Sequence record: MW883059
Strand: one strand, 5' to 3'
Source: Escherichia phage vB_EcoM_SYGD1
DNA length: 64,000 bases
The notes below the pieces were generated by a model. The model made no database searches and was not told the DNA's origin. It saw only the letters and a list, made by a program, of their open reading frames with translations. This document shows positions 29,651-60,142 of the stretch, one piece after another; position 1 is the stretch's first letter; the number at the start of each line of letters is the position of its first letter. Made by a program: the position numbers and the translations under genes.

Positions 29651-29723
29651 TGGGAATTAGCCAAGTTGGTAAGGCATAGCACTTTGACTGCTAGATGCAA
29701 AGGTTCGAGTCCTTTATTCCCAG
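29651..29723 (+). tRNA. tRNA-Gln (UUG)
   Basis: Manual fold: acceptor tgggaat/attccca, anticodon loop cttTGac, T-arm ggttcgagtcc. Confidence 0.8.
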
Positions 29724-29724
29724 C

Positions 29725-29811
29725 GCGAGAATGGTCAAATTGGTAAAGGCACAGCACTTAAAATGCTGCGGAATGATTTCCTTGTGGGTTCGAGTCCCAC
29801 TTCTCGTACCA
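29725..29811 (+). tRNA. tRNA-Leu (UAA)
   Basis: Manual fold: long variable arm, anticodon loop ctTAAaa, T-arm ggttcgagtcc, encoded CCA. Confidence 0.8.
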
Positions 29812-29817
29812 AAGTTT

Positions 29818-29889
<72 letters not shown>

Positions 29890-29901
29890 AAATTTAATTT
29901 A

Positions 29902-29975
29902 CTCCGTGTAGCTCAGTTTGGTAGAGCGTCTGCTTTGGGAGCAGAATGTCACAGGTTCAAATCCTGCCGCGGAGA
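29902..29975 (+). tRNA. tRNA-Pro (UGG)
   Basis: Manual fold: anticodon loop ttTGGga, T-arm ggttcaaatcc. Confidence 0.8.
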
Positions 29976-29977
29976 CT

Positions 29978-30064
29978 GGAGGCGTGGCAGAGTGGTTTAA
30001 TGCACCGGTCTTGAAAACCGGCAGTCGCTCCGGTGACTCATAGGTTCAAATCCTATCGCCTCCG
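29978..30064 (+). tRNA. tRNA-Ser (UGA)
   Basis: Manual fold: long variable arm, anticodon loop ctTGAaa, acceptor ggaggcg/cgcctcc. Confidence 0.8.
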
Positions 30065-30071
30065 TAATTTC

Positions 30072-30144
30072 GCTGATTTAGCTCAGTAGGTAGAGCACCT
30101 CACTTGTAATGAGGATGTCGGCGGTTCGATTCCGTCAATCAGCA
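30072..30144 (+). tRNA. tRNA-Thr (UGU)
   Basis: Manual fold: anticodon loop ctTGTaa, acceptor gctgatt/aatcagc. Confidence 0.8.
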
Positions 30145-30150
30145 TATCAA

Positions 30151-30222
30151 GGCCCTGTAGCTGGAAGGTTCAAGCAAGCGACTCATAATCGCCAGATGGT
30201 GGTTCAATTCCACCCAGGGCCA
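30151..30222 (+). tRNA. tRNA-Ile (CAU, lysidine type) or Met
   Basis: Manual fold: acceptor ggccctg/cagggcc, anticodon loop ctCATaa; T4 carries a CAU tRNA read as Ile. Confidence 0.7.
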
Positions 30223-30263
30223 TATTTTGGGAACATAAATACTCTTAGAAATAGGAGATATTT

Positions 30264-30929
30264 ATGTTCCATTACACTTATAAAATAACAAATAAAATTA
30301 ATAATAAAATCTATATAGGCGCTCATTCTACCGAAAATTTAGATGATGGATATATGGGTTCTGGTAAATTATTAAAAAGAGCCCAAGACAAGTATGGTAT
30401 AGAAAATTTCTCTAAAGAAATATTAGAGTTCTTTGACGATAAAACCTCTATGTTTGAGTCAGAAAAGAATATTGTGACTGAAGAGTTTTTAAAGCGCCCT
30501 GATGTTTATAATTTGAAATTAGGTGGTGAAGGTGGTTGGGACCATTTAAACACTAAAGAATATTTGGATAAAAAGAAAGAAGCTTCCTTAAAAGGGGCTG
30601 CTGCTTTTAAAACCAGATTTGAGAACGACCCAGACCTTAAAGAAAAATATCGTAAAATGGGTTCAGAAAGGTTTAAACAGCTTTGGGATAATCCTAAGTA
30701 TAGAGAGAAATTTTTAAATATTAAATCTTTATTGGGTAAGACCCATACTCCTGAAACTATTAATAAAATGAAAGAATCTCACGCCAGAAATAAACACCAA
30801 CAGGGCGAAAAGAATTCCCAATTTGGTATGATGTGGATTCATTCATTAGATGAAAAAGTTTCTAAACGTATTAAGAAAACTGACCCAATTCCAGAAGGAT
30901 GGTTTAAAGGTCGAAAAATGAAATTTTAA
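30264..30929 (+). CDS. segB: GIY-YIG homing endonuclease inside the tRNA cluster (SegB-like)
   Basis: 221 aa; N-terminal YTYKITNKINNKIYIGAHS...YMGSG; sits between tRNA-Ile and tRNA-Arg as segB does in T4. Confidence 0.75.
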   Translation: MFHYTYKITNKINNKIYIGAHSTENLDDGYMGSGKLLKRAQDKYGIENFSKEILEFFDDKTSMFESEKNIVTEEFLKRPDVYNLKLGGEGGWDHLNTKEYLDKKKEASLKGAAAFKTRFENDPDLKEKYRKMGSERFKQLWDNPKYREKFLNIKSLLGKTHTPETINKMKESHARNKHQQGEKNSQFGMMWIHSLDEKVSKRIKKTDPIPEGWFKGRKMKF

Positions 30930-30932
30930 TTA

Positions 30933-31009
<77 letters not shown>

Positions 31010-47740: not shown

Positions 47741-48709
47741 ATGAAAACTGTAACTATCAATAAGGGTATCTACTTCGGTAAAGAAATCTCTGGAACTTTT
47801 GAGCTCTTAGGCGAATGGTTCCCAGATAATGCTCCGGTAGATGCACAAGGAGATGGTAAAGTTTTTGTTGAAATTGACGGTAAGCGTCGCGGTGTTTGGG
47901 TTTACAAATCAGACATTTCATATGATGGTGTAAAAGTTGAAGAAGTTAAAGAATCGTATGAAGATATGAAAACCCGCATTAATAAAAGATTTAATGTTAT
48001 GGGAATGATGACGAATGGTATTATTAACGGAAATATTCGTTCATTGATTATCTCTGGCGCAGCAGGTATTGGTAAAACGTATTCTTTAGATAAAGCTTTA
48101 AATAAAGCAAATGATATTGGATACATTGAATATAAAAGCATTAATGGTAAAATCTCTGGTATTGGTCTTTATGAACAGCTTTGGAATAATCGTGAAGAGA
48201 ATTCTGTCCTTTTGATTGATGATGTGGATGTTTTCTCTGATATGGACATTCTTAATCTTCTAAAAGCCGCTCTGGACACCGGAGAGACCCGTAAAGTCTG
48301 CTGGAGCACTGCATCTTCTTACTTAGAAGAAAAAGGCATTGAGCGTGAGTTTGAATTTAAAGGAACGATTGTTTTTATCACAAACGTTGACATTGACCGC
48401 GAATTAGACCGTGGTACTAAACTTGCTCCACATTTACAAGCATTAGTGTCCCGCTCAGTTTATTTGGATTTGGGTGTTCACACTAATGAAGAAATTATGG
48501 TCAGGGTTGAAGATGTTATTCTTTCAACCGACATGATGCAAAAGCGCGGTCTTTCTGATGAAGAAACTTATAAAGCATTATCATGGATGAAAGTCAATGT
48601 TAATCGTTTACGCAATGTTTCACTGCGTACTGCACTTTATCTTGCTGACTTTATTATGACCGACAAAAATCATTGGGAAGAAATTGCTGAAACGGTATTA
48701 TTAAAATGA
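47741..48709 (+). CDS. P-loop (AAA-like) ATPase
   Basis: Walker A GAAGIGKTYS, Walker B LLIDDVD; ORF 47723-48709, start at MKTVTINKG assumed. Confidence 0.55.
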   Translation: MKTVTINKGIYFGKEISGTFELLGEWFPDNAPVDAQGDGKVFVEIDGKRRGVWVYKSDISYDGVKVEEVKESYEDMKTRINKRFNVMGMMTNGIINGNIRSLIISGAAGIGKTYSLDKALNKANDIGYIEYKSINGKISGIGLYEQLWNNREENSVLLIDDVDVFSDMDILNLLKAALDTGETRKVCWSTASSYLEEKGIEREFEFKGTIVFITNVDIDRELDRGTKLAPHLQALVSRSVYLDLGVHTNEEIMVRVEDVILSTDMMQKRGLSDEETYKALSWMKVNVNRLRNVSLRTALYLADFIMTDKNHWEEIAETVLLK

Positions 48710-49425
48710 AAAAATATTTTACTATCTATAAAACTGAAATATTAAATTTAAAGACAGGTATTAAGAAATACTATTATGGTCGACATATAACTAATAACAT
48801 CAATGATTCGTATGTTGGTAGTGGAAATTATATAGAACGTGTAAAAGTGTCAAATGACCACATATTATCAAAAACGGTTTTAGAAGTTTTTGATAATTAT
48901 GATAAAATGGTACAAGCTGAAATATTATATATCATGGCAGGTAAATTGAAATATGGAAAAAACTGTGTTAACCTGTCATACGGGGGTGAAGGAGGAAAGG
49001 TTGCAGATGAAACTAGGATAAAATGCAAAAAGCATTCTATAAATTTATGGAAAAATCCTAATCATATACAGCATATGAAGAAAAAGATGAAAGAGGTTAC
49101 ATCCACGCCGGAAGCTAAATTAAACACTTCAATAAAAACTTCGCAACGATATAAGGACCCAGTTTTTGTTAGAAAAGTTAGTAATATTATTAAAAAGAAA
49201 CTAAGCAATCCTGTAGTAAAAGAAAAGCATATTAATGGAATTAAAGCTGCAAAGCGTTCTCATTTAACTATATGGCAGTATGAAGATGAATTATTCGAGC
49301 TTTGGAAAGAAACTAAATATGGATGGAGAAAATTTACAAAGGAAGCTATAAAACACGGATATCCAAATGAACCGTATCGTAGTATGGTATCAACTTTTCA
49401 GAAAAGACATTTAGAAGAATCCTAA
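48706..49425 (+). CDS. GIY-YIG homing endonuclease (seg-like)
   Basis: YFTIYKTEILNLKTGIKKYYYGRH...YVGSG; C-terminal basic repeats. Confidence 0.65.
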   Translation: MKKYFTIYKTEILNLKTGIKKYYYGRHITNNINDSYVGSGNYIERVKVSNDHILSKTVLEVFDNYDKMVQAEILYIMAGKLKYGKNCVNLSYGGEGGKVADETRIKCKKHSINLWKNPNHIQHMKKKMKEVTSTPEAKLNTSIKTSQRYKDPVFVRKVSNIIKKKLSNPVVKEKHINGIKAAKRSHLTIWQYEDELFELWKETKYGWRKFTKEAIKHGYPNEPYRSMVSTFQKRHLEES

Positions 49426-54875: not shown

Positions 54876-55349
54876 ATGTTATTGACTGGCAAATTATACA
54901 AAGAAGAAAAACAGAAATTTTATGACGCACAAAACGGTAAATGCTTAATTTGCCAACGAGAACTAAATCCTGATGTTCAAGCTAATCACCTTGACCATGA
55001 CCATGAATTAAATGGACCAAAAGCAGGAAAGGTGCGTGGATTGCTCTGTAATCTCTGCAATGCAGCGGAAGGTCAAATGAAACACAAATTTAATCGTTCT
55101 GGCTTAAAAGGACAAGGCGTTGATTATCTTGAATGGTTAGAAAATTTACTTACTTATTTAAAATCCGATTACACCCAAAATAATATTCACCCTAACTTCG
55201 TTGGAGATAAATCAAAGGAATTTTCTCGTTTAGGAAAAGAGGAAATGATGGCTGAGATGCTTCAAAGAGGATTTGAATATAATGAATCTGACACTAAAAC
55301 ACAATTAATAGCTTCATTTAAGAAGCAGCTTAGAAAGAGTTTAAAATGA
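54876..55349 (+). CDS. 49: Endonuclease VII (Holliday junction resolvase)
   Basis: 157 aa; Cys pairs and HLDHDHELNG catalytic region. Confidence 0.85.
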   Translation: MLLTGKLYKEEKQKFYDAQNGKCLICQRELNPDVQANHLDHDHELNGPKAGKVRGLLCNLCNAAEGQMKHKFNRSGLKGQGVDYLEWLENLLTYLKSDYTQNNIHPNFVGDKSKEFSRLGKEEMMAEMLQRGFEYNESDTKTQLIASFKKQLRKSLK

Positions 55350-55864
55350 CAATTGAAAAAGAAATTGAAGGATTGATTCATAAAACTAATAAAGACCTTT
55401 TAAACGAGAATGCTAATAAAGATTCTCGTGTTTTTCCAACTCAACGGGACCTTATGGCTGGTATTGTGTCTAAACACATTGCCAAAAATATGGTCCCGTC
55501 TTTTATTATGAAAGCGCATGAAAGCGGAATTATTCATTTCCATGATATTGATTATTCCCCTGCTCTTCCATTTACTAATTGCTGTTTAGTAGATTTAAAA
55601 GGAATGCTTGAGAACGGGTTTAAGCTTGGTAATGCACAGATTGAAACCCCTAAATCAATTGGCGTTGCTACTGCAATTATGGCACAAATTACTGCACAGG
55701 TTGCTTCCCATCAATATGGCGGAACGACTTTTGCGAATGTAGATAAAGTACTTTCTCCTTATGTTAAACGCACCTATGCGAAACATATTGAGGACGCGGA
55801 AAAATGGCAAATCGCAGATGCATTGAATTATGCCCAATCTAAAACAGAAAAAGATGTCTATGAC
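55346..55864 (+). CDS. nrdD: Anaerobic ribonucleotide reductase NrdD, exon 1 (3' boundary approximate)
   Basis: Reading frame closes at 55891 inside the intron; exon end estimated, not determined. Confidence 0.6.
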
Positions 55865-56897
55865 GCGTTCCAGGCGTATGAGTTAATTTAATTCAGGCTC
55901 ATGTAAAACCGGTCTAAACGGGGAACCTCTCTAGTAGACAATCCCGTGCTAAATGTTCTTTTGAACTAAATGCCTAACGACTAACCGTGATGAATGTAGC
56001 GGTGTAGAATAGAAGCTAATGCTATTCGAAACGGCCGGCATCGAAAGATGAAGATATAGTCTAATCTGCATGGCGACATGCAGCAGTCATCTTGTATAAA
56101 TAAGATTATCTTATGAATACGAGGTGAAACAATGAAATGGATAAAAAGACGTTGTACTAAAATAAAAGATAAAGACGCATTTACATACTTAGTTAAGTTT
56201 TCTAATGGTGACATTTATATCGGTTATAAAAAATTTAGAACAATTAAAAACAAGCCCACAAACTGGAAAACTTACACAACGTCATCTAAGTATATAAATG
56301 AACGCTTAAAAACTGATACACCTACTAAATGGATAATTTTAAAAACATTTGATAGTTATAAAGATGCATTAAAACATGAAGAAGAGGTCATACGTAAATA
56401 TTTTTATAGCAAAAAATGTTTAAATAAATCCATAGGCGGTAAAAAGTTTTATAAGCATCCGGATACTGAAGAACATATTCAAAAATTAAGAGATGCTCAT
56501 AAGGGTAAAGTGTTATCCGAATCTCATAAAAACAATATAAAATCTTCTGTAGCTGAATATTATGCTAAAAACGGAAGATCTAAGGAACATGTGCAAAATA
56601 ATATCAATAGTCGAAAAAGTAAAAAACAAGTATCGATAAAGCTTAAAAATAAAACTTTTAGAAGTTTTAAAAAAGCAGCGGAATATTTAAATTGCACTGA
56701 AAGTGAAGTCGAAACTCATCCTCTTGTTTTGAGTATTAAGACTACTATTCATAAAGTTCCTGAATATGTGGTTGTTGACGGTATTAAGTATACGTCTTAT
56801 ATAGAAGCAGCTAAAGCGCTAAATTTTCATCCTAGCACTATAAAAGAACGTTGCATATCTATGGACTATCCAAATTTTGTTGTTTCATATAAACGGG
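55865..56897 (+). mobile_element. Group I self-splicing intron in nrdD carrying a homing endonuclease ORF (boundaries approximate)
   Basis: nrdD frame is interrupted by about 1 kb holding a free-standing GIY-YIG ORF, then resumes; T4 nrdD has a group I intron of similar size. Confidence 0.6.
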
Positions 56898-56902
56898 CAT
56901 GA
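56132..56902 (+). CDS. Intron-encoded GIY-YIG homing endonuclease (I-TevII-like)
   Basis: 256 aa; FTYLVKFSNGDIYIGYKK GIY-YIG motif; inside nrdD intron. Confidence 0.7.
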   Translation: MKWIKRRCTKIKDKDAFTYLVKFSNGDIYIGYKKFRTIKNKPTNWKTYTTSSKYINERLKTDTPTKWIILKTFDSYKDALKHEEEVIRKYFYSKKCLNKSIGGKKFYKHPDTEEHIQKLRDAHKGKVLSESHKNNIKSSVAEYYAKNGRSKEHVQNNINSRKSKKQVSIKLKNKTFRSFKKAAEYLNCTESEVETHPLVLSIKTTIHKVPEYVVVDGIKYTSYIEAAKALNFHPSTIKERCISMDYPNFVVSYKRA

Positions 56903-58208
56903 ATTTGCGACTCATGCTGAATATAATGATGAAGTAAATACACTTTTCAGCTCTAATGGACAAACGCCTTTTGTAACAATTACATTTGGTACGGGAACTG
57001 ACTGGACTGAACGAATGATTCAGAAAGCAATTCTGAAAAATCGTATTAAAGGTCTTGGTCGTGACGGGATAACTCCTATTTTCCCTAAACTTGTTATGTT
57101 CGTTGAAGAAGGTGTTAATCTTTATAAAGACGATCCGAACTATGATATTAAGCAGCTTGCTCTAGAGTGTGCAAGTAAAAGAATGTATCCTGACATCATT
57201 TCGGCTAAGAACAATAAAGCTATTACCGGTTCATCTATTCCTGTTTCTCCAATGGGTTGTCGTAGTTTCTTGAGTGTATGGAAAGATTCGACTGGTAATG
57301 AAATTCTTGATGGACGTAATAATCTTGGTGTTGTAACACTGAATCTTCCTCGTATTGCGTTAGATTCTTATATTGGAACACAGTTCAATGAACAGAAATT
57401 TGCCGAATTGTTCAATGAACGAATGGATTTATGTTTTGAAGCTTTGATGTGTAGAATCAGTTCCTTAAAAGGAGTTAAAGCGACTGTTGCTCCTATTCTT
57501 TATCAAGAAGGTGCATTCGGGGTTCGTCTTAAACCTGATGACGATATAATTGAGTTATTTAAAAACGGTAGAAGTTCAGTGTCCTTAGGATACATTGGTA
57601 TTCACGAATTGAATATTCTTGTCGGTCGTGATATTGGACAAGAAATTTTAACTAAAATGAATGCTCATCTTAAGCAGTGGACTGAAAGAACCGGTTTTGC
57701 TTTTAGCTTGTATTCTACTCCTGCGGAAAACCTGTGCTATCGCTTCTGTAAACTTGATACCGAAAAATATGGAAGTGTAAAGGATGTTACTGATAAAGGC
57801 TGGTACACTAATAGTTTCCATGTTTCAGTAGAAGAAAATATTACTCCGTTTGAAAAGATTTCTCGCGAAGCCCCATATCATTTCATTGCGACAGGTGGTC
57901 ACATTTCTTATGTTGAACTTCCTGATATGAAAAATAACCTAAAAGGTCTTGAGGCTGTATGGGATTATGCTGCACAACATTTAGATTATTTTGGTGTTAA
58001 TATGCCAGTAGATAAATGTTTTACGTGTGGAAGTACCCATGAAATGACTCCAACTGAAAACGGATTTGTTTGTTCTATTTGTGGAGAAACTGATCCTAAA
58101 AAGATGAACACAATAAGAAGAACATGCGGATATCTTGGAACTCCTAGCGTTGTTCCATGGAATTTAGGTAAAATGAAAGAAATGGTAAAACGAGTAAAAC
58201 ATGCATAG
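56898..58208 (+). CDS. nrdD: Anaerobic ribonucleotide reductase NrdD, exon 2 (5' boundary approximate)
   Basis: Zn ribbon CFTCGSTHEMTPTENGFVCSICGE and glycyl radical motif RRTCGYLG near C-terminus. Confidence 0.8.
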   Translation, partial: HEFATHAEYNDEVNTLFSSNGQTPFVTITFGTGTDWTERMIQKAILKNRIKGLGRDGITPIFPKLVMFVEEGVNLYKDDPNYDIKQLALECASKRMYPDIISAKNNKAITGSSIPVSPMGCRSFLSVWKDSTGNEILDGRNNLGVVTLNLPRIALDSYIGTQFNEQKFAELFNERMDLCFEALMCRISSLKGVKATVAPILYQEGAFGVRLKPDDDIIELFKNGRSSVSLGYIGIHELNILVGRDIGQEILTKMNAHLKQWTERTGFAFSLYSTPAENLCYRFCKLDTEKYGSVKDVTDKGWYTNSFHVSVEENITPFEKISREAPYHFIATGGHISYVELPDMKNNLKGLEAVWDYAAQHLDYFGVNMPVDKCFTCGSTHEMTPTENGFVCSICGETDPKKMNTIRRTCGYLGTPSVVPWNLGKMKEMVKRVKHA

Positions 58209-59031
58209 GTATTATATAATTTATAAAATAACAAATATAATTAATTCAAAGGAATATATCGGTGCGCATAGCACCGATAACATAAATGACGGTTATATGG
58301 GGTCAGGAACATTGATTCGTGCCGCTTTATTAAAATATGGTAGAAAAAATTTTAATAAAGAAATTTTACATGTTTTTGATAATGAAAAACAAATGTATGA
58401 TAAAGAAGCTGAACTTGTAACCGAAGAGTATTGTCTAAAAGAAAATACATATAATATTAAACCTGGTGGAAAAGGTGGAACTGCCTATGAACAGACACTT
58501 GAACATCGCCGCAAAAATAGTTTAGCAAATAAAGGTAAAAAGAGAACAGAAGAAACTAAAATAGCTATTTCACGTGCTTTAAAGAAATATAAACGTACGC
58601 CAGAGCATCAAGCAAATTTAAATAAAGCCGTAAGCATAGCTATGAAGCGAAAAGATGTTAGAAGTAAATTAGCTGGAGAGCGGTCTGAGAAAGATAAATT
58701 ATCTATATCAAACGGTGTTAAAAAATATTACAATTCTTTGAGTGAAGAAGAACGCGAACTTCATCGCAAGCGAATTATTGAAGGTAAAAAGAATTCTCCC
58801 ATGTCATTGGAATCTAGACAAAAGCTTTCAAAAGCTTTAAAAGGACTTCAAGTTGGTTCAAAAAATCCAATGTATGGAAAAATTTCTCCAACTAGCAAAA
58901 CCGTTTCAGTTGACGGTATTAAATATGATTCAATTAAAAAGTGCTCAAATGCCATAAAAGTTTCTAGACATCTTATACTAAAACGCTGTAATTCTACTGA
59001 TGAAGCTTGGAAAAATTGGATATTATTATGA
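58201..59031 (+). CDS. GIY-YIG homing endonuclease (seg-like) between nrdD and nrdG
   Basis: YYIIYKITNIINSKEYIGAHS...YMGSG; resembles the segB-like ORF at 30264. Confidence 0.7.
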   Translation: MHRYYIIYKITNIINSKEYIGAHSTDNINDGYMGSGTLIRAALLKYGRKNFNKEILHVFDNEKQMYDKEAELVTEEYCLKENTYNIKPGGKGGTAYEQTLEHRRKNSLANKGKKRTEETKIAISRALKKYKRTPEHQANLNKAVSIAMKRKDVRSKLAGERSEKDKLSISNGVKKYYNSLSEEERELHRKRIIEGKKNSPMSLESRQKLSKALKGLQVGSKNPMYGKISPTSKTVSVDGIKYDSIKKCSNAIKVSRHLILKRCNSTDEAWKNWILL

Positions 59032-59498
59032 ATTATGACAGAATATACCCGTGCTGCTTTGTTAATGGTCCTGGATGCAGGACAGTTCTTTTCGTTACAG
59101 GTTGTTTGCATAAATGCGAAGGGTGTTATAATAAATCAACATGGAATGCTAGAAATGGCGTTCCATTCACTGGTGAAACACTAGAACAATTAATTGAATG
59201 TTTGAATAATGATTATATAGAAGGATTAACTATAACTGGAGGAGACCCTCTTTATCCTGATAACCGAGATGATGTTCATTGCATTGTTCAAACGGTAAAA
59301 AATCTTTATCCAAATAAAAGCATTTGGTTGTGGACAGGGTACAAGTTTGAAGATATTAAACAACTAGAAATGCTTAAATATGTTGATGTTATTATTGATG
59401 GGAAGTATGAGAAAAATCTTCCGACCAAAAAGCTGTGGCGGGGTTCAGATAATCAGCGACTTTGGTCAAATACCGATGGGGTGTGGAAACATGATTAA
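59028..59498 (+). CDS. nrdG: Anaerobic RNR activating enzyme NrdG (radical SAM)
   Basis: CLHKCEGC radical-SAM cluster motif; 156 aa from MNYDRIY. Confidence 0.8.
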   Translation: MNYDRIYPCCFVNGPGCRTVLFVTGCLHKCEGCYNKSTWNARNGVPFTGETLEQLIECLNNDYIEGLTITGGDPLYPDNRDDVHCIVQTVKNLYPNKSIWLWTGYKFEDIKQLEMLKYVDVIIDGKYEKNLPTKKLWRGSDNQRLWSNTDGVWKHD

Positions 59499-59612
59499 AC
59501 TGAATTATATTATTGATACTATAAATGATATGATTTTTCATTTTGGTCCAGAATTTTATTCGCAGTATAGTTTAGTACTTATCAATGCTTGGTTAATCAA
59601 TTAAGGGTAAAT

Positions 59613-59828
59613 ATGTATAAATTTCGTAAAGGTTTAGCTGATTTTCTTACAACTGTAACGTTCTTTTTGTTTATGGCAGTTGGTGCTATTTTTCTTATTC
59701 CTTTTATTGCTATATTTTTCGTGATTAGCTTAATTTCTCCAGAAAAAGGACTGTCTTCTAGCGAGTTCAATGAACGCCTGGATAAAATTACTAACAAACT
59801 GAATTCTGTTCTTGACAAAAAGGCTTAA
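59613..59828 (+). CDS. Small membrane protein, hypothetical
   Basis: ORF 59589-59828; start at MYKFRKG assumed. Confidence 0.35.
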   Translation: MYKFRKGLADFLTTVTFFLFMAVGAIFLIPFIAIFFVISLISPEKGLSSSEFNERLDKITNKLNSVLDKKA

Positions 59829-59830
59829 TT

Positions 59831-60142
59831 ATGATTAGTTTTGAGCGGTATGTGGTAGAGAGTTGGAAGGGTTTTGATATGTTCGGTAATGACTATTATT
59901 TCTATGAATGTAGTCTAAATCCTAGTTTTTGGGCTGGACGAGAACGAGAACTCGAAGAAATTAATAACCGTGCTGAATTGTTAGGTGAATTACCTACGGT
60001 TTATTTTACCTTTGATGCATCTGGATTTGTTATCCAGGTTTATTTTCCTGAAGAAAATTCTGGCGATGATTCTGTTAACCCGCCATACTGGGCTTATCAA
60101 GGAATTATTTCTCGTGGAACAAAACTCGAACTTAAAGAATAA
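59831..60142 (+). CDS. Hypothetical protein
   Basis: 103 aa. Confidence 0.4.
   Translation: MISFERYVVESWKGFDMFGNDYYFYECSLNPSFWAGRERELEEINNRAELLGELPTVYFTFDASGFVIQVYFPEENSGDDSVNPPYWAYQGIISRGTKLELKE

Follow-up and report, generated by a model that had tools for sequence, protein, structure and literature searches.

The closest described gene is segH of T-even-type phages, known from phages RB3, LZ2 and T6 (Sandegren, Nord and Sjöberg, Nucleic Acids Res 2005;33:6203). Its product reportedly cuts close to its own gene, cleaves both segH+ and segH- DNA and homes in mixed infections. As the 2005 work is cited, segH, a GIY-YIG gene, replaces the gene for T4 MobC between nrdD and nrdG in related genomes (Sandegren et al. 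2005). The site of mobC in T4 is given as nrdG/nrdD (Table 1, PMC2988022).

The window, the whole stretch of 64,000 nucleotides analysed here, is a Tequatrovirus (T4-like) segment that is collinear with the opposite strand of T4, from coordinate ~100 kb to 38.7 kb. The ORF listing contains, exactly as an earlier note on this DNA had claimed, an ATG-initiated open reading frame of 276 aa plus stop on the + strand between nrdD and nrdG (58201..59031). The earlier note had described its product as a seg-like, free-standing GIY-YIG endonuclease. A tblastn search of GenBank phages identified it as SegH itself, with 100% amino acid identity over 276 aa to SegH of RB3 (ABI48949.1, AY262138.2) and 98.2% to that of T6. 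The RB3 record is 2.7 kb long and annotated nrdD-segH-nrdG, with the entry 'segH: homing endonuclease'; the SegH label is also used in the records of phage F2 and Salmonella phage KM16, and the protein matched PHROG 314 'homing endonuclease' at 2e-60. We are highly confident of this identification as segH, a gene of T-even-type phages that codes for a free-standing GIY-YIG homing endonuclease. The gene is already known, having been described in 2005 and annotated in RB3, T6, KM16 and F2. SegH of RB3, LZ2 and T6 is encoded at the same locus, nrdD-segH-nrdG, where its start and stop overlap the neighbours in the same way, and no difference of substance was found. Relative to the RB3 record, the DNA flanking segH in the window differs by ~2.4% and the window additionally has a group I intron in nrdD.

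Both neighbours overlap the endonuclease gene. The ATG of segH (58201-58203) begins 5 nt 5' of the nrdD stop TAG (58206-58208), giving an overlap of 8 nt (ATGCATAG) and bearing out the proposed start at the nrdD stop. The nrdD gene is split into exon 1 (55346..55883, + strand; Pfam NRDD 1e-40; collinear with T4 nrdD) and exon 2 (56929..58208, + strand; NRDD 1e-122, Gly_radical 6e-25). The splice junction was placed between AYE and YEVNTLF, by reference to the T4 NrdD protein sequence and to the DNA on either side, and is putative. The group I intron of nrdD was visible only under permissive Rfam filters (74 bits), and Rfam at the gathering threshold returned no match in 55000-60000. An intron around segH is absent; nrdD and nrdG abut the gene directly, and no Rfam match was obtained at the locus. 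On the other side, the overlap with the start of nrdG proposed in the earlier note is real, but the start codon on which it was based, TTG 59007 (MEKLDII..., MEKLDIIMNYDRIY), is an artefact of the longest open reading frame. The annotated starts in RB3, T6, T2 and T4 all lie at the conserved MNYDRIY..., which corresponds to ATG 59028, and the 156-aa product read from there (59028..59498, + strand), the anaerobic RNR activase, retains a full Fer4_12/radical-SAM match (Pfam Fer4_12 4e-48, Radical_SAM). With nrdG starting at ATG 59028, segH, which ends in the stop TGA (59029-59031), therefore shares 4 nt, ATGA, with it. Phages whose site is empty join nrdD and nrdG through the same ATGA arrangement.

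The predicted architecture of SegH is the bipartite design of I-TevI, extended by a long helical linker of NUMOD3 type, because Foldseek matched both I-TevI domains to the model of the protein. A GIY-YIG catalytic domain (aa 1-95, 58201..58485, + strand) carries Y8 (GIY), Y19-I20-G21 (YIG), E69 and N85. It is followed by the helical linker, which carries repeats of NUMOD3 type (aa 100-228, 58498..58884, + strand; Pfam NUMOD3 and predicted helices) and by a C-terminal helix-turn-helix DNA-binding domain of I-TevI type (aa 229-276, 58885..59028, + strand; Pfam, Foldseek and BLASTP). In an alignment of 58 sequences Y8, Y19, G21, E69, Y84 and N85 were invariant, and among the 58 homologues the GIY-YIG set Y8 (IIY in SegH), Y19-I20-G21, E69 and N85 was likewise invariant. 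After YIG, the residues H23 and D30 and a GSG motif were conserved. Profile alignment placed the SegH motifs on Y6, Y17-V-G and the GYN motif of I-TevI. Searched against PDB sequences, the 58-sequence profile picked solely the I-TevI catalytic domain (1MK0/1LN0), with a weak E of 0.069 and an alignment over the full domain; phmmer with SegH alone returned only noise from the PDB sequences.

As the sequence profile reached I-TevI only weakly, a comparison of structures was needed for a clear link. The AlphaFold2 model of SegH had a mean pLDDT of 86.5, with values of 95-98 over aa 1-90, and showed seven predicted helices at aa 100-213. Its top Foldseek matches in the PDB were 1MK0/1LN0 and 1I3J, i.e. 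the I-TevI catalytic domain (probability 1.00; TM(target) 0.63 for 1MK0, 0.59-0.63 for 1MK0/1LN0) and the I-TevI DNA-binding domain (probability 0.93). Among the Pfam models, NUMOD3 matched aa 200-228 with an E of 3.1e-8, I-TevI_DNA-bd matched aa 226-273 with an E of 3e-4, which is under the curated cut-off, and the GIY-YIG models all stayed below threshold, SegE_GIY-YIG reaching 18.6 bits against a curated cut-off of 25. By BLASTP the C-terminus was weakly similar to I-TevI, I-TevII and SegD (E 1e-5 to 4e-4, with 4e-4 for SegD), and against the T4 I-TevI C-terminus E was 0.002-0.005. SegH thus has in common with I-TevI, the endonuclease of the T4 td intron, the N-terminal GIY-YIG domain, the extended linker and the C-terminal helix-turn-helix. 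The two differ in that I-TevI is intron-encoded whereas SegH is free-standing, in that their catalytic domains are only ~25% identical, and in the SegH linker, which is much longer, helical and composed of NUMOD3-type repeats. No equivalent of the I-TevI zinc finger or of its Arg27 was found in SegH; the 58-sequence alignment contained no invariant Arg, and the I-TevI segment with Arg27 is inserted with respect to the Seg profile. A 9-bp hairpin inside segH (58257-58279) was not conserved in SegB, T4 SegD or the Slopekvirus homologue.

The earlier note had pointed out that the first 40 residues resemble a segB-like open reading frame elsewhere in the window and had suggested that one endonuclease lineage had duplicated and spread to two loci. 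The second gene (30264..30929, + strand) is an orthologue of segB, with 83% identity to T4 SegB along its entire 221 aa (Pfam GIY-YIG 1.4e-5), and lies at the position of T4 segB between tRNA-Met(CAT), annotated as tRNA-Ile in T4, and tRNA-Arg. The resemblance is genuine and extends further than claimed: aa 4-102 of SegH and aa 2-100 of the SegB-like protein are identical at 51/99 positions (52%, BLASTP E = 2e-33), so that the whole catalytic domain of ~95 residues is covered. It ends there, with no similarity past residue ~102, and the C-terminal, DNA-binding halves proved unrelated in the pairwise alignment (best BLASTP E = 3.1). A lack of significant similarity outside the GIY-YIG core is the outcome that the earlier note had named as refuting its reading. 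Over 92 aligned columns the catalytic domain of SegH is 53.3% identical to that of SegB, 53.3% to that of T4 SegD, 52.2% to those of SegA and SegC, 48.9% to that of SegE and 66.3% to that of the Slopekvirus protein. SegA, SegC and SegD are as close to SegH as SegB is, and the pattern YKITN..YIGAHST..DGYMGSG, quoted in the earlier note, is therefore characteristic of the SegA-E/H subfamily as a whole. The best full-length match in T4 is SegD (31.6% over 263 aa, E 2e-34), which is encoded between genes 23 and 24, at another locus and in another orientation, is 53 aa shorter than SegH and resembles it weakly in the C-terminal part.

SegH and SegB appear to share an old catalytic module by distant common ancestry, joined to different DNA-binding modules. 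SegB combines its Seg-subfamily catalytic domain with an unrelated C-terminal half and differs from SegH in its target, which is the tRNA gene region, and in its locus. We consider it fairly probable that segH arose by modular shuffling, in which a catalytic module of the Seg family became joined to a DNA-binding module that recognises the nrdD/nrdG junction, and only the nuclease module would be shared with SegB, by ancient descent. This reading describes the origin of the gene and is compatible with its identity as segH. It agrees with the confinement of the similarity to SegA-E to aa 4-95, with a C-terminus that instead resembles I-TevI, I-TevII and SegD weakly in sequence and 1I3J in structure, and with a Slopekvirus homologue that has both modules and is 38% identical in the C-terminal part (E 5e-29). 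Against it, no source was found for the C-terminal module and all the domains are too diverged for a fusion to be dated. A recent duplication of one lineage within this phage lineage, giving rise to segH and the segB-like gene, is very unlikely. The catalytic domains are 52-54% identical and both proteins match PHROG 314, but among 120 database homologues 118 have a catalytic domain nearer to SegH than that of SegB and 104 have one nearer to SegB than that of SegH. The equal distance of SegA, SegC and SegD (52-53% each) and the loss of similarity in the C-terminal half likewise speak against it, as does the presence of full-length SegH relatives beside nrdD, at the same site, in Moonvirus (91%) and Slopekvirus (48%). 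A duplication with segB has no support beyond family membership.

The comparison of the nrdD-nrdG junction in relatives that the earlier note had proposed revealed a polymorphic site, which may be empty, carry segH, carry an HNH gene of mobC type or contain a decayed segH. Carriage of segH, defined as a record covering at least 80% of 57700-59500 among the 842 phage records that match this interval, was found in 69 of the 842. SegH with at least 90% amino acid identity occurred in 72 records. The site is empty in most Tequatroviruses (e.g. T2 and IME537), where the TGA of nrdD overlaps the ATG of nrdG. In T4 and Paracelsus the junction holds HNH genes of mobC type (mobC of T4, 211 codons including stop; Paracelsus, 280 codons including stop), and in both T4 mobC and its longer Paracelsus homologue the first 7-13 codons are a duplicate of nrdG codons (MNYDRIY and MNYDRFYPCDFVN). 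These genes share the junction with SegH and retain the ATGA overlap with nrdG, but they belong to the HNH family and, unlike segH, leave the T2-type nrdD tail in place. SegH has no HNH Pfam match and no detectable similarity to the MobC-type HNH proteins (BLASTP E 0.37-2.0); a DNA-binding module common to the two gene types, considered as a candidate, was rejected on these values (E 0.37-2). In phage PD112 segH has decayed through a frameshifting deletion of 589 bp between microhomologies of 12 nt.

Outside Tequatrovirus, the Moonvirus KM16 encodes a SegH with 91% amino acid identity at the same junction. A full-length homologue with 48% identity and both domains lies directly 3' of nrdD in the Slopekvirus KLB27 and in an IMG/VR contig (L015). 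In other genera, then, the close relatives of SegH are found at the same site next to nrdD. When IMG/VR was scanned with the SegH alignment, 46 Seg-family loci were retrieved, of which only the Slopekvirus-like L015 has nrdD upstream.

The comparison with KM16 also delimits a cassette that is larger than the gene. While nrdD and nrdG of the window and KM16 are 60-80% identical, the interval 58121-59080 is ~90-96% identical; at ~58121 the identity jumps from 65-80% to 95%, and after ~59080 it drops from ~90% to 60-80%. We take this as direct evidence for the movement of a unit of ~960 bp (~58121-59080) between genera. The left end (58121..58208, + strand) is the segH-linked 3' allele of nrdD, with the codons of the glycyl-radical loop and a 22-codon tail TPSVVPWNLGKMKEMVKRVKHA. 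The right end (59028..59080, + strand) is the segH-linked 5' allele of nrdG, which reads MNYDRIYPCCFV... as opposed to MNYDRFYPCDFV in empty sites. The cassette brings along the last ~28 codons of nrdD, from the glycyl-radical loop RTCGYLG onwards, and the first ~12-17 codons of nrdG, and disrupts neither of the two essential genes nor their translational coupling through ATGA.

In all segH+ phages, the decayed copy included, the residues C-G-Y-L-G are encoded by TGC GGA TAT CTT GGA and followed by the tail TPSVVPWNLGKMKEMVKRVKHA, whereas all empty-site and mobC phages have TGT GGT TAT TTG GGA and the tail NPNERGFNLGKNKEIMHRVKHQ. The changes in the glycyl loop are synonymous and the two tails are equal in length (22 residues). 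The segH-linked tail allele was present in 80 phage records. Set against the 72 records that have SegH at 90% amino acid identity or more, this count suggests linkage between segH and the diverged tail of nrdD. A Slopekvirus-like donor of the tail was rejected, as the tails differ (TPSVVPWNLGKMKEMVKRVKHA vs AAERPMNKGKQNEIIHRVKHN). The dN/dS of segH against the KM16 copy is 0.17, so that the gene is under purifying selection, and this value and the invariant catalytic residues indicate that its function is maintained. That segH is instead a fixed, inactive and decaying remnant, kept only by its position between two coupled essential genes, is hardly plausible, for although PD112 documents decay at this site and most relatives are without segH, the open reading frame of the window is intact and equal to the RB3 protein, its catalytic residues are invariant, the dN/dS is low across genera and the sharply bounded cassette of high identity in another genus indicates recent mobility.

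Most probably, the target of SegH is within the ~120 bp that the cassette replaces at an empty site, either in the glycyl loop and tail of nrdD or in the 5' end of nrdG. Sandegren et al. (2005) may already have mapped where SegH cuts. Similarity between genomes with and without the endonuclease gene breaks exactly at the glycyl loop in both the Tequatrovirus and the Slopekvirus comparisons; in Slopekviruses lacking an endonuclease, similarity to the endonuclease-carrying genome stops right after the loop. The alleles with endonuclease in Tequatrovirus, Moonvirus and Slopekvirus encode G-Y-L as GGA TAT CTN, and those without it in Tequatrovirus, Slopekvirus and Pseudotevenvirus as GGY TAT TTG; within Slopekvirus the contrast is GGA TAT CTG vs GGC/GGT TAT TTG. 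This codon pattern comes from two or three lineages, which may share one ancestral cassette, and the 46 IMG/VR loci added no independent lineage to the comparison of target sites. One could speculate from these alignments that the SegH family targets the DNA for the NrdD glycyl-radical loop (RTCGYLG) and the C-terminal tail, and that the recoded copy in the cassette protects its carrier, at least partly; we regard this as a tentative proposal that is rather doubtful at present. The cleavage of segH+ DNA that is reported for SegH argues against full immunity from the recoded flanks.

Neither a T4 late promoter (TATAAATA) nor a MotA box was found on the + strand in 57600-59100, and no sigma-70-like promoter site was detected upstream of segH. 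The gene would thus be without a promoter of its own and is probably co-transcribed with nrdD. Because its ATG overlaps the nrdD stop, translation of segH is probably low and would depend on re-initiation at this codon. Overlapping stop and start codons with weak re-initiation are known for other free-standing endonuclease genes of T4 (review, PMC2988022). In a mixed infection, to judge from the family and from published work on SegH, the enzyme would introduce a double-strand break in the nrdD/nrdG junction of a segH- phage, and recombinational repair off the segH+ genome would then copy segH together with short flanks into the cut phage. The cassette of high identity and sharp boundaries that is shared with another genus lends such homing indirect support.

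For segH as such the analysis adds little that is new, as the gene is already described and active according to the 2005 work. It corrects the view of segH and segB as a recent pair, and it corrects the start of nrdG. It also lets all the stages in the life cycle of a homing endonuclease gene be read at one site from current genomes, which include the empty site, sites invaded by segH or by HNH genes of mobC type, a cassette shared across genera, and decay. The boundary of the cassette at the glycyl-radical loop of NrdD provides a concrete hypothesis for the recognition site of SegH; if true, a selfish nuclease would recognise the codons under the strongest constraint in an essential radical enzyme.

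The segH cassette, about 960 bp comprising the free-standing GIY-YIG endonuclease gene segH, the linked nrdD tail and the first nrdG codons, was also found in Salmonella phage KM16, a Moonvirus. Its sequence there was ~90-96% identical to window 58121-59080, whereas the flanking nrdD and nrdG shared just 60-80% identity. This difference between cassette and flanks indicates that the cassette moved between genera. In phage PD112, segH had suffered a 589-bp internal deletion (equivalent to window 58328-58928) flanked by 12-nt microhomologies, which causes a frameshift; this copy is therefore decaying, and the segH-type nrdD tail is still present beside it.

The gene is annotated inconsistently. 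An identical copy in phage RB9 (KM606998.1) was named 'segD', and several records list segH as 'hypothetical protein'. In phage F2 (4498-5232 of the extracted locus) the protein was annotated from an internal Met, and the resulting start of this 244-aa version removes the GIY and YIG motifs. The YIG-motif codons (YIGAHSTD) coincide exactly with an inverted repeat inside segH whose 9-bp arms pair perfectly around a 5-nt loop (TATCGGTGC GCATA GCACCGATA, 58257-58279; approximately -15 kcal/mol as RNA). The repeat was also present in the F2 gene, the sole other segH copy compared, and was absent from segB, T4 segD and the Slopekvirus homologue when sought in these three.

Further GIY-YIG genes occupy other sites in the window. 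Eight tRNA genes (Gln, Leu, Gly, Pro, Ser, Thr, Met(CAT)/Ile and Arg) form a T4-type cluster at 29651-31009, and the segB orthologue is inserted between the last two of them, as it is in T4. A third free-standing GIY-YIG ORF (48706-49425, + strand, 239 aa) was assigned to PHROG 314, with a match covering the N-terminal 103 aa (5e-17), and shares 37% identity with the SegH catalytic domain. This ORF begins with an ATG that shares bases with the preceding stop codon (ATGA). Homologues of T4 nrdC.10 and nrdC.9 flank the insertion, a position left empty in T4 itself. Within nrdD, a group I intron spans 55884-56928 (+ strand); an RF00028 match at 55852-56083 (74 bits) was obtained with permissive filters only, and joining the exons at 55883|56929 yields an NrdD of 605 aa. 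The intron holds an I-TevII-like GIY-YIG ORF of 256 aa (56132..56902, + strand), directly preceded by the T4 late-promoter motif TATAAATA at 56095. This ORF is just 56% identical to T4 I-TevII, while the surrounding gene reaches ~84% at the DNA level.

The nrdG gene contains a GC-rich hairpin with a T-run after it (59068-59083, + strand), upstream of a strong predicted sigma-70/T4-early-like promoter (59105-59132, + strand; TTTGCA, 16 nt, TG-TATAAT; 10/12 matches). The predicted promoter is underlain by the CxxxCxxC codons and was kept in all eight aligned phages including T4, with 1-2 substitutions in some; the 55.8/nrdH genes, which lie downstream, may be transcribed from it.

The 5' ends of T4 mobC (806-830 of the T4 locus) and of the HNH gene of phage Paracelsus (806-845 of its locus) consist of duplicated nrdG codons 1 to 7-13, and in both genes these represent the empty-site allele, the junction version of phages without an endonuclease gene. 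Downstream of its HNH gene, Paracelsus nrdG carries an 'IYPCCFV' 5' allele identical to that of segH-positive phages. Together, the duplicated starts and the Paracelsus allele suggest that the same few nrdG codons were reshaped by endonuclease genes arriving in succession.
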